Source of the DNA: a virus
Lineage: Duplodnaviria > Heunggongvirae > Uroviricota > Caudoviricetes
Reading direction: 5' to 3' (one strand)
Length of the DNA: 6,132 nt
Virus record (IMG/VR): IMGVR_UViG_2663762857_000017
Positions 1,626 to 5,848 of the stretch are shown in pieces (positions within the stretch are counted from its first letter, which is position 1; each line of letters opens with the position of its first letter). The notes under the pieces are model-generated. The model was not told where the DNA came from, made no database searches, and saw only the letters and a list, made by a program, of their open reading frames with translations. Both the position numbers and the translations under genes were made by a program.

Positions 1626-2189
1626 GTGCTGACAACGCAAAAACGAAAATTTGCGCTGGCGCTCATGTCCGGGAAAAACAAAACAGCGTCAGCCATTGCC
1701 GCCGGTTATTCGGCGAAGACCGCCAGGGTTAAAGGCTCGCAGCTGGCAAAAGATCCGGAGGTGCTTGCGTTTATAGCCCGTAAACAATGCGAGACGGTGG
1801 AGGTGGATGAGGTTCCTGTTTACCGGCAGAAAAAATCAGAGCAGGAGGATAAACCCCGTCGTCGTGAGGCGGCTGCAATACCACAGCCGGACGAAAACAA
1901 TCCGGAGATGCCACCGTCCGCGGTGATGTCTCCTGGTATTGAATATATGGAGGATGGTCTTCCCGATCCGGTGAAAGCCATGGGGCGGATCCTGGTGGAA
2001 AACCTCTGCATTGATCCGAAACTGGCACTGGATGCGGCCTGGCGTCTGGCGCAGTTCACGCACCATAAAAAAGGGGATACCGGGAAAAAATCGGCAAAAG
2101 GTGATGCCGCGAAAAAAGCGGCTAACCGTTTTGCGGTGCCACCGCCACCCAGACTGGTGGTGAATAACGATAATGAGGGCAACGGATGA
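1626..2189 (+). CDS. Terminase small subunit (TerS) with N-terminal HTH DNA-binding domain
   Basis: 187-aa ORF with a GTG start preceded by a strong SD (GGGAGGAGG). The N-terminus LTTQKRKFALALMSGKNKTASAIAAGYSAKTARVKGSQLAKDPEVLAFI matches the conserved small-terminase HTH pattern (KQxxF...GN.T.AAI.AGYS.KTA...GS.L...P.V...I). Its stop overlaps the TerL start. Confidence 0.85.
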   Translation: MLTTQKRKFALALMSGKNKTASAIAAGYSAKTARVKGSQLAKDPEVLAFIARKQCETVEVDEVPVYRQKKSEQEDKPRRREAAAIPQPDENNPEMPPSAVMSPGIEYMEDGLPDPVKAMGRILVENLCIDPKLALDAAWRLAQFTHHKKGDTGKKSAKGDAAKKAANRFAVPPPPRLVVNNDNEGNG

Positions 2190-3847
2190 TACCTGTATGG
2201 AGCACAGCCTGCCCGGACTGGGCAGAGCGCCTGAAAAAGGGGCTGTCGATTATTCCGGATCCGATTTATCCGGACGATGCCGCACATGCCCTGGCGATTT
2301 TTAAACAACTGCGGATTGTGGATGCACCTGGTAGCCCTACGTTCGGGGAGTCCTGTGCACCGTGGGTGTTTGACCTGGTGGCGGCCCTGTTTGGCTCCTA
2401 CGATGCGCAGACCGGTGTACGCCATATCAAGGAAGTTTTTATCCTTATCCCCAAGAAAAACTCGAAGTCCACGCTGGCCGCGGGGATCATGATGACGGCG
2501 CTGTTACTGAACTGGCGGCAGGCGGCGGGTTACACGATTCTGGCCCCGACTGTGGAGGTGGCGGCCAACGCCTTCAACCCTGCCCGGGATATGGTACGAC
2601 GTGACGATGATCTGGATGACCTCTGCCAGGTACAGACCCATATCCGGACCATCACCCACAGGGTGACAGACACCACCCTGAAGGTGGTGGCAGCCGATCC
2701 GAATACGGTGTCCGGTATCAAGTCCGTGGGTACGCTGATTGATGAGTTGTGGCTGTTTGGCAAGCAGTGCAAGGCGGAGGACATGTTACGTGAAGCCATA
2801 GGCGGCCTTGCCTCCCGCCCGGAAGGGTTTGTGGTGTATACGACCACCCAGTCGAATGAACCGCCCGCCGGGGGGTTCAGACAGAAACTGCAGTACGCCC
2901 GGGATGTGCGCGACGGCAAAATTCATGATCCGCACTTTCTGCCGGTGATATTTGAACACCCTCCTGAAATGGTGGAAAGCGGGACTCACCTGCTGATGGA
3001 AAACCTCGCCATGGTCAATCCGAATCTCGGCTATTCAGTGGATGAGGCCTTTCTGTACCGGGAGTACCGTAAAGCCCGGGAAGCCGGTGAAGAGACATTC
3101 CGGGGGTTCATGTCAAAACACGCCAATGTGGAAATTGGTCTTGCCCTGCGCTCTGACCGCTGGGCGGGGGCTGATTTCTGGGAAGAGCAGGGCCGTTGTA
3201 TCAGCCTGGACGATATCCTGCGTCGTGCTGATGTGGTGACGGTGGGGATTGACGGCGGAGGGCTGGATGATCTGCTGGGGATGTATGTGATTGGGCGTGA
3301 CCGGGAGACCCGCGAATGGCTGGGCTGGGGCCATGCCTGGGCGCATGAAACCGCGGTGGTCCGACGGAAGAGCGAGGCGTCCCGGTTTCAGGATCTTGTT
3401 GCCTGTGGAGATATGACCATTGTCCGGCGTGTCGGGGATGACACGGCGGAAGTGGCGGAATATGTGCGTCGCATTCATGAGGCTGAGTTACTGGACCATA
3501 TCGGTATTGACCCGTCAGGGGTGGGGCAGATTCTGGATTCACTGGCGGAAGCCGGGATCCCCGACGGAATTGTGGTGGGGATAAGCCAGGGCTGGAAACT
3601 GGGCGGGGCCATTAAAACCGCCGAGCGCAAACTGGCTGAAGGGGTGCTGGTGCATGGTGACCAGCCCCTGATGGCCTGGTGTGTCGGCAATGCCCGGGTG
3701 GAGCCTAAAGGTAACGCCATTCTTATCACCAAACAGGCCAGTGGACGGGGAAAAATTGACCCGCTGATGGCGCTGTTCAATGCGGTCTCCCTGATGTCCC
3801 TTAACCCGGAACCGAAAAAGAAAGAATATGCGGTTTTTTTCATATAA
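2186..3847 (+). CDS. Terminase large subunit (TerL), ATPase plus nuclease
   Basis: 553-aa ORF whose ATG overlaps the TerS stop (ATGA), with a GAGGG SD. Motifs in the expected order: deviant P-loop IPKKNSKST (aa 88-96), Walker B GTLIDELW, coupling motif VVYTTTQ, nuclease-domain start VVTVGIDGGG, and a C-terminal acidic motif IDPLMALFNAV. Confidence 0.9.
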   Translation: MIPVWSTACPDWAERLKKGLSIIPDPIYPDDAAHALAIFKQLRIVDAPGSPTFGESCAPWVFDLVAALFGSYDAQTGVRHIKEVFILIPKKNSKSTLAAGIMMTALLLNWRQAAGYTILAPTVEVAANAFNPARDMVRRDDDLDDLCQVQTHIRTITHRVTDTTLKVVAADPNTVSGIKSVGTLIDELWLFGKQCKAEDMLREAIGGLASRPEGFVVYTTTQSNEPPAGGFRQKLQYARDVRDGKIHDPHFLPVIFEHPPEMVESGTHLLMENLAMVNPNLGYSVDEAFLYREYRKAREAGEETFRGFMSKHANVEIGLALRSDRWAGADFWEEQGRCISLDDILRRADVVTVGIDGGGLDDLLGMYVIGRDRETREWLGWGHAWAHETAVVRRKSEASRFQDLVACGDMTIVRRVGDDTAEVAEYVRRIHEAELLDHIGIDPSGVGQILDSLAEAGIPDGIVVGISQGWKLGGAIKTAERKLAEGVLVHGDQPLMAWCVGNARVEPKGNAILITKQASGRGKIDPLMALFNAVSLMSLNPEPKKKEYAVFFI

Positions 3848-3873
3848 CCCTGTTCACCCTGTAACCATCATGG

Positions 3874-3899: not shown

Positions 3900-3910
3900 A
3901 GGAGGCTGAT

Positions 3911-5848
3911 GTGACTCTTAAACGGGCCTGCTCCCTGCTGACGGTGAAATCCTTCAGTGAGGATGAGCGGGTGATCACCGGGATTGCGTCAACGCCTTCT
4001 CCGGATCGGGATGGTGACATCCTGGAGCCGGAGGGCGCGGAGTTTGGCAGTGCGATCCCGTTTCTCTGGCAGCATGACCATTCCCGCCCGGTGGGGCAGT
4101 GTACGGTGCGCCGGGTCAGCGAAGGGCTGGAAATCACGGCAACACTGGCGAAGCCCGTGCCGGATATGCCATCGCAACTGGCTGCCCGGCTGGATGAGGC
4201 CTGGGCGGCCATTAAGACCGGGCTGGTCAGGGGGCTGTCCGTGGGCTTCCGTCCCCATGAATACACCTTTCTGGACGGAGGCGGACTGCATTTTCTGCGC
4301 TGGGAGCTGATGGAGGTGTCTGCCGTCACCGTGCCCGCGAATGCGGAATGCACCATCCGGACCATTAAATCTTACGACCGCCAGTTTTCTGCCGCGTCCG
4401 GCAACCGGAAACCGGTGGTGAAAATCGCATCTTCTGCCGGCGCTGCGGCACAGTCAACAACCGTTTTTCATAAGGAAAAGACCATAATGAATATTGGCGA
4501 ACAGATTAAAAGTTTTGAAAACAAGCGTGCAGCACTGGCAGCCTCCCTTGAGGAGGTCATGACCAAAGCCGCAGAGGAAGGGCGCACGCTGGATGTGGAG
4601 GAGGAAGAGCATTACGACAACACCGCAGCGGAAATACGTCAGGTGGATGCGCACCTGAAGCGCCTGCGTGAACTGGAAGCCGGTAAGGCCGCCACGGCGC
4701 AGCCGGTGAAACAGGCCGGTAACGGGAATGTGGCCGCGGTGGCTTCTGCGCCGGTGATCCGTGTGGAGCAGAAACTGGATAAGGGGATTGGTTTCGCACG
4801 TTTTGCCAAATCGCTGGCTGCGGCTAAAGGTGTCCGCTCTGAAGCCCTGGAAGTGGCCCGTCGTCAGTATCCGGATGACAGTCGTCTGCATCATGTCCTG
4901 AAATCGGCAGTGGGCGCGGGGACCACCACGGATCCGCAGTGGGCAGGCAGCCTGTCTGAATATCAGGAATACGCACAGGACTTTATTGATTATCTGCGTC
5001 CGCAGACCATTATCGGGCGATTTGGTCAGGGCGGGATCCCTGCACTTCGTCAGGTGCCGTTCAATATCCGTGTGCACGCCCAGGTGTCCGGCGGTGCTGC
5101 CGGCTGGGTGGGTGAGGGTAAGGCAAAACCCCTGACGAAGTTTGATTTTGAATCCATCACCTTCAGTCATGCGAAAGTGTCGGCCATTGCGGTACTGACG
5201 GAAGAATTGATCCGTTTTTCCAGTCCGGCTGCTGATGCACTGGTCCGTAATGCGCTGGCGGAAGCGGTGGTGGCGCGTCTGGATACAGACTTTGTGGACC
5301 CGAAAAAAGCCGCAGTGGCAGATGTCTCCCCGGCGTCCATCACCCATGATGTGAAGGGCACGGCATCAACCGGTAACCCGGATGCGGATGCAGAGGCTGC
5401 GTTTGGACAGTTTGTGGCAGCAAACCTGCAGCCCACCGGTGCGGTCTGGCTGATGTCCAGCACCAATGCCCTGGCACTGTCCATGCGTAAAAATGCGCTG
5501 GGTCAGAAGGAATACCCGGACATGACCCTGCTGGGTGGCTCCTTCCAGGGGCTGCCGGTGATTGTCTCCCAGTACGTGGGTGACCAGCTGGTGCTGGTGA
5601 ATGCCCCGGATATTTATCTGGCGGATGACGGCGGCGTGGCAGTGGATATGTCCCGCGAGGCATCACTGGAAATGCAGTCTGAGCCGACCGGCGACAGTAC
5701 CACGCCGTCCCCGGTGGAGCTGGTTTCCATGTTCCAGACAGGCAGCGTGGCCATCCGTGCGGAGCGCTGGATCAACTGGCGTCGTCGCCGTACCGCGGCG
5801 GTGGCGGTGATCACCGGAGTGAACTACGGCAGTGCGTCCGGCAGCTGA
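3911..5848 (+). CDS. Prohead protease-major capsid protein fusion (HK97-family protease domain plus HK97-fold capsid protein)
   Basis: 645-aa ORF with GTG start and GGAGG SD 5 nt upstream. The N-terminal ~190 aa (KSFSEDERVITGIASTPSPDRDGDILEPEGAEF...) match the HK97-family prohead protease pattern. Next comes a coiled-coil delta/scaffold-like segment (MNIGEQIKSFENKRAALAASLEEVMTKAAEEGRTLDVEEEEHY...LKRLRELEAGKA), then the capsid body ending ...SMFQTGSVAIRAERWINW. Confidence 0.85.
   Translation: MTLKRACSLLTVKSFSEDERVITGIASTPSPDRDGDILEPEGAEFGSAIPFLWQHDHSRPVGQCTVRRVSEGLEITATLAKPVPDMPSQLAARLDEAWAAIKTGLVRGLSVGFRPHEYTFLDGGGLHFLRWELMEVSAVTVPANAECTIRTIKSYDRQFSAASGNRKPVVKIASSAGAAAQSTTVFHKEKTIMNIGEQIKSFENKRAALAASLEEVMTKAAEEGRTLDVEEEEHYDNTAAEIRQVDAHLKRLRELEAGKAATAQPVKQAGNGNVAAVASAPVIRVEQKLDKGIGFARFAKSLAAAKGVRSEALEVARRQYPDDSRLHHVLKSAVGAGTTTDPQWAGSLSEYQEYAQDFIDYLRPQTIIGRFGQGGIPALRQVPFNIRVHAQVSGGAAGWVGEGKAKPLTKFDFESITFSHAKVSAIAVLTEELIRFSSPAADALVRNALAEAVVARLDTDFVDPKKAAVADVSPASITHDVKGTASTGNPDADAEAAFGQFVAANLQPTGAVWLMSSTNALALSMRKNALGQKEYPDMTLLGGSFQGLPVIVSQYVGDQLVLVNAPDIYLADDGGVAVDMSREASLEMQSEPTGDSTTPSPVELVSMFQTGSVAIRAERWINWRRRRTAAVAVITGVNYGSASGS

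Follow-up and report, generated by a model that had tools for sequence, protein, structure and literature searches.

A head module without a visible portal gene on an Escherichia coli prophage contig: probable effect of lineage-specific gene order and a contig end within an IS66-family element

DNA that is 98–99% identical to the locus described here forms part of 50–60 kb lambdoid phage genomes. These include genes for replication, Q, lysis, portal, neck, tail and tail fibres, in many cases together with stx. In relatives of this identity (e.g., locus L005), the shared region follows a lysis cassette and precedes a complete set of neck and tail genes. Lys8385Vzw, a related phage obtained by induction, forms long-tailed siphovirus particles and packages its DNA from a cos site (PMC7946995). 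A polycistronic transcript in which the capsid gene precedes the portal gene has also been published (PMC8156552). This gene order is unmentioned in the Virfam paper (PMC4362835), and our full-text literature search found no paper that treats it explicitly.

Here, we analysed a 6132-bp stretch of DNA (hereafter called the window), which is identical to the complete draft contig CDQW01000307.1 (GCA_000936715.1; locus L014). Positions 1–6021 show 95–99% nucleotide identity to 79 phage records, and DNA of the same identity is present in 1121 complete E. coli genomes; the matching long-tailed Stx phages include 2851, YYZ-2008, JLK-2012 and Lys8385Vzw. The HNH-TerS-TerL-capsid segment is collinear with the 2851/YYZ-2008/JLK-2012 type (95.7–99.3% identity, over window positions 1–6021 or 793–6021, in one or two blocks), and the window ORFs are intact and 98–99% identical to their counterparts in complete prophages. 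Judged by its sequence, the window holds the packaging and capsid genes (cos-HNH-TerS-TerL-protease/capsid) at one end of the head region of a very common E. coli long-tailed lambdoid Stx-type prophage.

Why does this head module show no portal gene? The initial annotation had placed the end of TerL at 3847 and the start of the capsid ORF at 3911, and the ORF listing agrees that the gap is exactly 63 bp. The 43-aa ORF and the convergent gene, which it saw as the only elements following the capsid gene, are both real: they are a truncated 73-aa ORF and the 3′ end of an IS66-family transposase gene. That the window encodes no portal also holds, since neither TerL nor the 645-aa capsid protein matches a portal family (Pfam, E<=0.01). 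The early observation is confirmed, and its interpretation is partly supported. We estimate a probability of about 0.88 that the portal-less appearance reflects a gene order specific to this lineage, together with a contig end in an IS66-family element inserted before the portal gene. The features of the window are as follows.

254..595, plus strand: gene for a lipoprotein with a TonB C-terminal domain (Pfam TonB_C, E 1.4e-14)
727..987, minus strand: DUF3950 (YlcI/YnfO family) gene (Pfam DUF3950, E 6e-19; annotated YlcI/YnfO in JLK-2012)
969..1334, plus strand: packaging-associated HNH endonuclease gene adjoining the terminase genes (Pfam HNH, E 4.8e-7; phrog_589, E 1.6e-44)
1387..1396, plus strand: probable cos cohesive-end site CGCGCCCCCT (Lys8385Vzw genome end; published cos, with one mismatch)
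1430..1551: five exact ATGTTAAC motifs (motif count against shuffles)
1626..2189, plus strand: terminase small subunit, TerS (Pfam Terminase_2, E 1.3e-8; phrog_641, E 1.8e-68)
2186..3847, plus strand: terminase large subunit, TerL, ATPase and nuclease, 553 aa (Pfam; phrog_9, E 3e-143)
3848..3910, plus strand: TerL-capsid spacer of 63 bp with no ORF inside (ORF coordinates)
3911..5848, plus strand: single gene in which a prohead serine protease (HK97-type), a scaffold-like coiled-coil linker and a major capsid protein of the HK97 fold are fused (Pfam, NCBIfam, PHROG)
5893..6024, plus strand: truncated small ORF, 43 of 73 codons, which lies between capsid and portal in relatives (alignment with L005)
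6021..6132, minus strand: end of an IS66-family (ISCro1-like) element, 112 bases (100% identity to ISCro1 copies)

The left part of the window has a phage late-region context. DUF3950 genes are typically found between the lysis and packaging genes of lambdoid prophages, and such a gene lies upstream here; the TonB-like gene occupies the same context in a subset of the relatives. The DUF3950 gene is annotated shorter in relatives, at 727–927, and is 66 aa as called in L014. The TonB-like lipoprotein gene is an accessory (moron) gene of the late region, outside the head module, and window positions 120–792 are missing from phages 2851 and YYZ-2008 and found in JLK-2012.

The packaging genes follow. 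An HNH match lies directly 5′ of TerS/TerL in 20 of 29 species loci. A cos site is probably located at 1387–1396, in the spacer between the HNH and TerS genes: the virion-derived Lys8385Vzw genome begins at the window-equivalent position 1397, and the window sequence CGCGCCCCCT differs by one base from the cos CGCCCCCCCT reported at the end of that genome (PMC7946995), a motif match that by itself is not above chance. Beside this site, all five window matches to ATGTTAAC fall inside 1430–1551 (0.10 expected; five reached in 0 of 200 shuffles), and the cluster is a candidate set of TerS binding sites. In TerL, the Pfam ATPase and nuclease domains (TerL_ATPase and TerL_nuclease) span residues 63–535. 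The 63-bp spacer contains a terminator-like hairpin with a T-run at 3872–3889, detected by a pattern scan that returned 3 sites in the window versus 5.7 expected; intrinsic-terminator sites in the window are thus no commoner than chance.

The capsid ORF starts with GTG and encodes 645 aa, with Pfam matches to Peptidase_S78 at residues 48–153 and to Phage_capsid at residues 386–635. Its assignment to the HK97-family major capsid proteins is given by TIGR01554 (major_cap_HK97; 78.1 bits, cut-off 27.5) and PF05065 (53 bits, cut-off 24.2), and that of its S78 protease domain by PF04586 (34 bits, cut-off 21); the score against TIGR01543 is 46.6 bits, under the cut-off of 59. The full-length protein matches phrog_617 (E 1.9e-261). 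A PDB sequence search yielded a single weak capsid match, 9d9w (E 0.0017), and no solved close homologue. A hairpin located 3′ of the capsid stop codon does not significantly exceed shuffled sequences in stability (z -1.7).

The close relatives indicate where the portal gene belongs. In 11 of the 11 that extend beyond the capsid gene (L001, L002 and L005–L013), an HK97-family portal gene starts about 210 bp past the capsid stop, at the window equivalent of 6060, and the genes follow one another as the 73-aa ORF, the portal gene, and then the neck and tail genes. The portal start codon in the intact relatives overlaps the 3′ end of the small ORF. The intact 73-aa ORF of L005 (phrog_829, E 2e-39) is identical to the window ORF over its first 43 residues. 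The protein encoded 3′ of it, 859 or 861 aa in length, is the true portal (PF04860, E 5.9e-81; TIGR01537, portal_HK97, 349 bits, cut-off 112), and the E. coli portals are extended at the C terminus by about 400 aa that contain 54-aa repeats. Among the 1248 complete E. coli genomes carrying this capsid 3′ end, 1244 have the contiguous capsid-small ORF-portal junction, in up to seven copies per genome. The initial annotation had read the locus as a non-canonical or minimal head module; the relatives instead carry the portal gene shortly after the capsid gene, in a contiguous head operon, which that annotation itself had named as evidence against a portal-less module.

Moreover, this arrangement extends far beyond E. 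coli. Of the 29 species-level relatives, which come from the Alpha-, Beta- and Gammaproteobacteria, 27 have the order TerS-TerL-protease/capsid-small ORF-portal, and the species-representative loci with the capsid before the portal range from Enterobacterales to Hyphomicrobiales, Caulobacteraceae, Snodgrassella and Marinobacter. The same order is seen, at 39% identity, in Burkholderia phage vB_FUB47a. To call the succession TerS-TerL-portal-protease-capsid nearly invariant, as the initial annotation had done for HK97-like modules, was an overstatement, as a broad lineage uses TerL-protease/capsid-portal.

At the right end of the window, the IS end opens with the IS66-type terminal repeat GTAAGCG at 6021–6027 and encodes the last 26 transposase codons on the minus strand, corresponding to a partial minus-strand gene call at 6051–6131 in L014. 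The insertion point is within the small ORF, 38 bp short of where the portal gene would be expected to start. Because the element interrupts this ORF, its 73 codons are shortened to 43, and the stop codon TAA at 6022–6024 is within the IS terminal repeat. A reference copy of the element (in L015) is 2699 bp long and is a clean insertion with the 8-bp target duplication ACATAAAA. Two short contigs of other assemblies that contain the 43-aa ORF are not further IS junctions: their gene calls are partial, cut by the contig ends, and consist of intact-phage sequence, one of them ending in ...CCGG versus ...CCGT at the IS junction. Both matches were picked up as an artefact of selecting for exact length.

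Gene order and assembly: In this lineage, the genes run TerS, TerL, protease-scaffold-capsid (joined in one gene in the enterobacterial members), small ORF, portal, head-tail adaptor and head closure, with the tail genes last, so that the portal is never placed between terminase and capsid. In the strain sequenced here, an ISCro1-like element (about 2.7 kb) has inserted into the small ORF. As such an element is a repeat, we infer that the short-read assembly broke at it, leaving a contig that stops 112 bases into the element and shows no portal gene. The portal and the remaining morphogenesis genes would then lie on another contig beyond the IS. After a simple insertion, the opposite IS end ...GAGCCGGTTAC should be followed by the 8-bp duplication CGACGTCC and then by GGCAGGTCAGAAAAAGAAACGTGATGCGGAGCATGGCGAATG, where the portal starts; the sequence expected after the target duplication, ahead of the portal gene, is GCAGGTCAGAAAAAGAAACGTGATG...

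Head assembly: Established HK97 biology leads one to expect that the HNH protein cuts at cos together with TerS and TerL, and that the fused protein assembles on a dodecameric portal. Its protease domain would then remove itself and the scaffold-like linker, producing the mature capsid protein.

The contig end inside an IS could also have another origin, in that an IS-mediated deletion or rearrangement in this strain removed the portal gene together with the neck and tail genes that follow it, which would make the locus a degenerate prophage. Deletions in lambdoid prophages are often marked by IS elements, and the exact junction (window 5850–6132) is unique, as it was found in 0 of 5426 complete E. 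coli genomes. Capsid-portal junctions are also lost on rare occasions: the remaining 4 of the 1248 genomes have a best match that does not run across the junction, and in the one example listed (H90) the capsid gene abuts the tape-measure gene. However, the usual outcome of IS66 transposition is a simple insertion, as in the clean, duplication-flanked reference copy, and the intact window ORFs with their near-identity to complete prophages argue against long decay. We thus regard such a loss as unlikely. It is quite improbable, in particular, that the IS66 insertion either deleted the genes for portal, neck and tail or severed them from the late operon, leaving an intact cos-HNH-TerS-TerL-capsid remnant that relies on sibling prophages of the same type for its portal and tails. 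If true, this remnant would be, de facto, a helper-dependent, satellite-like defective prophage.

The initial annotation had offered two further possibilities: a portal gene in an unusual position outside the window, which is what the 11 relatives display, and a satellite-type island that has its own terminase and capsid and borrows other parts from a helper. For such an island (e.g., a capsid-forming, PICI-like element dependent on a helper for portal and tails), the sole support is the list of genes in the window (HNH, TerS, TerL and capsid, no portal), whereas the 98–99% identical DNA resides in lambdoid phages with lysis genes upstream and complete neck and tail genes downstream, modules for an integrase, regulator or primase are absent next to it, and related phages form complete siphovirus particles (PMC7946995); this part of the earlier interpretation is not supported, and a satellite is extremely improbable. 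The chance that a fused or divergent portal domain is hidden in the 553-aa or 645-aa protein is close to nil: Pfam, PHROG and NCBIfam profiles explain the two as terminase and protease-scaffold-capsid with no portal match, tblastn of the relatives' portal against the six window frames gave noise (best E 0.04, 22 residues), and all relatives have a separate portal gene. The fused TerL-portal idea raised earlier for the 553-aa protein was rejected, as its terminase profile matches fill residues 63–535.

The preferred reading, a lineage-specific order cut short at an IS, concerns known biology and implies nothing new. Besides the textbook HK97 order, TerL-protease/capsid-portal exists as a conserved and widespread alternative, which about 23% of complete E. 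coli genomes contain; gene-order rules that flag satellites or defective prophages should admit it. The locus also cautions that a “portal-less” head module in a short window can arise from a lineage-specific order and a contig break at an IS.

Finally, we compared the window with known systems. The long-tailed lambdoid Stx-type phages 2851 (Pankowvirus), YYZ-2008, JLK-2012 (Marienburgvirus), Stx2 phage 1717 and Lys8385Vzw, at 95–99% identity to positions 1–6021, share its order of DUF3950, HNH, TerS, TerL, fused protease-capsid and small ORF, and probably its cos position. Unlike in these phages, the small ORF of the window holds an IS66-family insertion, where the sequence stops, and unlike 2851 and YYZ-2008, the window has the TonB-like moron. 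The visible end of the element agrees with ISCro1 (IS66 family) at 100% over the terminal 112 bases, including the GTAAGCG repeat and the minus-strand transposase 3′ end; the remainder of the element and its target duplication fall beyond the contig.

As in NCBIfam NF045541 (prohead protease/major capsid protein fusion protein), the protease, scaffold-like segment and capsid are in one gene, and therefore are expected in 1:1 stoichiometry, with self-removal at maturation. The 645-aa protein belongs to a different fusion subfamily, because it scores 53 bits against NF045541, far under the cut-off of 525. The tripartite capsid gene of Salmonella phage Gifsy-2, reportedly described by Effantin et al. 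in 2010, likewise comprises protease, scaffold-like segment and capsid; it is said to combine a ClpP-type protease with a lambda E-type capsid protein, with the portal gene upstream.

With the canonical HK97 head module, the lineage shares the HK97-type major capsid (TIGR01554), the S78 protease domain, the portal (TIGR01537, read in the relatives), and an HNH gene beside the terminase genes, with a probable cos site, so the same assembly and maturation logic is expected. In contrast, the canonical module has the portal gene between TerL and the protease, where the window has a 63-bp ORF-free gap; its S78 protease is a separate gene, whereas protease, scaffold-like linker and capsid form one polypeptide here. 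In the window's lineage, the portal gene follows the capsid gene, and unlike in the canonical module, a conserved small ORF lies between the two.

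The window is identical to contig CDQW01000307.1 (6132 bp) of the assembly GCA_000936715.1, and is thus an entire draft contig, both ends of which are assembly breaks. According to a six-frame ORF list and a Pfam scan, its genes all lie on the plus strand, with the exception of one minus-strand gene:

254-595, plus strand: TonB C-terminal-domain lipoprotein gene
727-987, minus strand: DUF3950 (YlcI/YnfO) gene
969-1334, plus strand: HNH endonuclease
1626-2189, plus strand: terminase small subunit (TerS)
2186-3847, plus strand: terminase large subunit (TerL), with ATPase and nuclease domains over residues 63-535; phrog_9
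3911-5848, plus strand: 645-aa ORF with a Peptidase_S78 prohead protease (residues 48-153), a coiled-coil linker and a Phage_capsid domain (386-635)

PHROG and NCBIfam accord with Pfam on TerL and on the fused protease-capsid protein, which matches phrog_617 over its full length and exceeds the cut-off of TIGR01554 (major_cap_HK97). The TerL-capsid spacer is exactly 63 bp, as the initial annotation stated in observing that no portal gene intervenes. The absence extends to the whole window: no portal family matches any ORF, and tblastn with the family's true portal yields only noise.

All of the phage-DNA matches end at window 6021. The remaining segment, 6021-6132, matches one end of ISCro1 (IS66 family) at 100% identity, an element carried by 2096 of the complete E. 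coli genomes searched; the reference copy (2699 bp) carries tnpA, tnpB and a transposase gene, with an 8-bp target duplication at its flanks. In the window, the IS segment opens with the IS66-family terminal GTAAGCG and contains the last transposase codons on the minus strand, which is what had been taken for a convergent gene. The insertion follows codon 43 of a 73-aa ORF, of which window 5893-6024 is a truncated copy, and the stop codon of the resulting 43-aa ORF (TAA, 6022-6024) is part of the IS terminal repeat. The contig stops 112 bases into the IS, probably because this multi-copy repeat is impassable to short-read assembly. None of the complete E. coli genomes searched contains this IS junction. 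Two short contigs of other assemblies end at most 1 base from the insertion point, yet carry intact-phage sequence; they are a selection artefact and no sign of an insertion hotspot, since the look-up that retrieved them demanded the exact 43-aa product.

Where, then, is the portal gene? Window 1-6021 is matched over at least 80% of its length by 79 phage records at about 94-99% identity, including Stx1a-, Stx2a- and Stx2c-converting phages, Enterobacteria phage 2851, YYZ-2008 and Escherichia phage JLK-2012, and also at places in 1121 of 5426 complete E. coli genomes (identity up to 99.3%). In all eleven relatives extending further (L001, L002, L005-L013), the 73-aa ORF begins 44 bp past the capsid stop, and a portal ORF starts at window-equivalent 6060, 38 bp beyond the insertion, its first 55 nt shared with the end of the small ORF. 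Its product matches PF04860 (E 5.9e-81), TIGR01537 (349 bits against a cut-off of 112) and phrog_2271 over the full length, and is by these profiles unambiguously an HK97-family portal. Moreover, a 1401-base probe comprising the capsid 3′ end, the small ORF and the portal 5′ end aligns without a break in 1244 of the 1248 complete E. coli genomes with any match, in up to 7 copies per genome.

An IS-associated deletion could instead have removed the portal and later genes in this one strain. In the other four of the 1248 genomes, the best match fails to span the junction, and in the one of these that is listed the capsid abuts a tape-measure gene. We consider such a deletion unlikely here, given that the ORFs in view are intact and that IS66 elements normally make simple insertions. 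The initial annotation also offered a satellite island as the reason for the missing portal, which the phage setting of near-identical DNA contradicts; its other suggestion, a portal outside the window, agrees with the downstream portal of the relatives. A portal domain hidden in TerL or the fusion is contradicted by the profiles, which account for both proteins, and by the tblastn noise.

In annotated records, the module lies within a lambdoid genome of 50-60 kb, preceded by replication genes, Q, tRNAs, stx or other cargo, and holin-endolysin-spanin genes. In these records and in L005, a 98.4% identical prophage, it is followed by the portal, head-tail adaptor, head closure, gp10-like and tail terminator proteins, and further downstream by the tail tube, tape measure, tail tip and J fibre. 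Lys8385Vzw, a member of the same group with the gene map TerS, TerL, capsid, 73-aa ORF, portal, was induced, and is a cos-packaging, long-tailed siphovirus by electron microscopy (PMC7946995).

The genome end of virion-derived Lys8385Vzw maps to window 1397, directly 3′ of CGCGCCCCCT (1387-1396), a probable cos end one base off the published cos (PMC7946995). Five exact ATGTTAAC motifs, against 0.1 expected by chance, all fall within 1430-1551 (122 bp) and are candidate TerS-binding sites; two of them together form the palindrome CCAGTTAACATGTTAACTGG. The proteins are HK97-type, and the HNH gene adjoins the terminase genes. By analogy with established HK97 biology, TerS would recognise the repeats beside cos, and TerL with the HNH protein would nick cos. 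The fused protein would co-assemble on the portal dodecamer, and its protease domain would digest both itself and the scaffold-like linker, so that the mature capsid protein remains. DNA packaging would follow, and the adaptor and head-closure proteins would then join the tail. The scheme as a whole depends on a portal, for which the family has a downstream gene.

Several other features of the window deserve mention. The TonB-like lipoprotein gene lies within segment 120-792, which JLK-2012 and many prophages carry but 2851 and YYZ-2008 lack; it is an insertion of the moron type, situated between the lysis region and the packaging region. A ten-G run (1343-1352) directly follows the HNH stop codon, and the 3′ end or spacer of this gene varies among relatives, as the annotated lengths are 176 aa in JLK-2012 versus 121 aa here and in phage 2851. 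Within the TerL-capsid spacer, a plus-strand hairpin with a T-run (GGACCGC-TGCG-GCGGTTT, TTTTATTTTC; 3872-3889) has the form of an intrinsic terminator located midway through the late operon, although the scan total was not above chance; Q-modified polymerase may transcribe through it, or it may play a role in mRNA stability. A perfect 9-bp G+C-rich hairpin without a T-run (CGGGAGGCG-TGCG-CGCCTCCCG; 5863-5884, plus strand) lies just past the capsid stop. Its stability does not significantly exceed that of shuffles (z -1.7); it could affect how strongly the capsid is expressed relative to the downstream portal.

The small ORF (55-73 aa, phrog_829; L005:11983-12204) is conserved between capsid and portal in most enterobacterial relatives, and its 55-nt overlap with the portal start in E. 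coli suggests translational coupling. The E. coli portal (859-861 aa; L005:12150-14735, outside the window) has a normal Phage_portal domain at residues 54-382, followed by a C-terminal extension with four tandem 54-aa repeats (about 525-740, consensus SHIPVPRDGRDYDPDVLQKAVNDAVANIPVPADGKSITPDDVRPMLEQMVKEAV) and a terminal domain of ~120 aa with only a sub-threshold CBM_5_12 match. The total length differs among relatives (699, 823, 859 and 861 aa). In JLK-2012 (L001:20061-22633, 450+407 aa) and Lys8385Vzw (L046:4664-6762, 454+245 aa), the annotation divides the portal between two consecutive CDSs, split near the start of the repeat-containing extension, which may reflect either a frameshift from sequencing or a genuine split. 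Unlike the E. coli portal, those of more distant relatives (444 aa in the Burkholderia phage) lack the extension.

The portal-less look of the window is therefore a correct observation with an ordinary explanation, and the IS insertion is a routine event. The premise that the TerS-TerL-portal-protease-capsid order is nearly invariant was too strong. Among 29 species-representative genomes encoding a relative of the fused capsid protein, from Enterobacterales, Hydrocarboniphaga, Marinobacter, Snodgrassella, Hyphomicrobiales and Caulobacteraceae, 27 have TerL, protease/capsid and portal in this order on the same strand; of the two exceptions, one is cut by a contig end, and the other has a capsid-gene fragment with none of the remaining genes detected. 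In most cases the TerL-capsid gap is again about 60 bp, and the small ORF and adaptor are usually also present. We found no paper commenting explicitly on the capsid-before-portal order, a gap in commentary rather than in knowledge: the module, the gene order and the fusion can all be found, with annotation, in public records of phages and genomes. The same arrangement recurs in the Burkholderia phage vB_FUB47a (39% identity), where protease and capsid are encoded by separate genes and an unannotated 58-aa ORF occupies the position of the small ORF. It is also seen in a published polycistronic phage transcript (PMC8156552). Judged by these gene orders, TerS-TerL-protease/capsid-small ORF-portal-adaptor is a variant of the HK97-type module that is both conserved and widespread.
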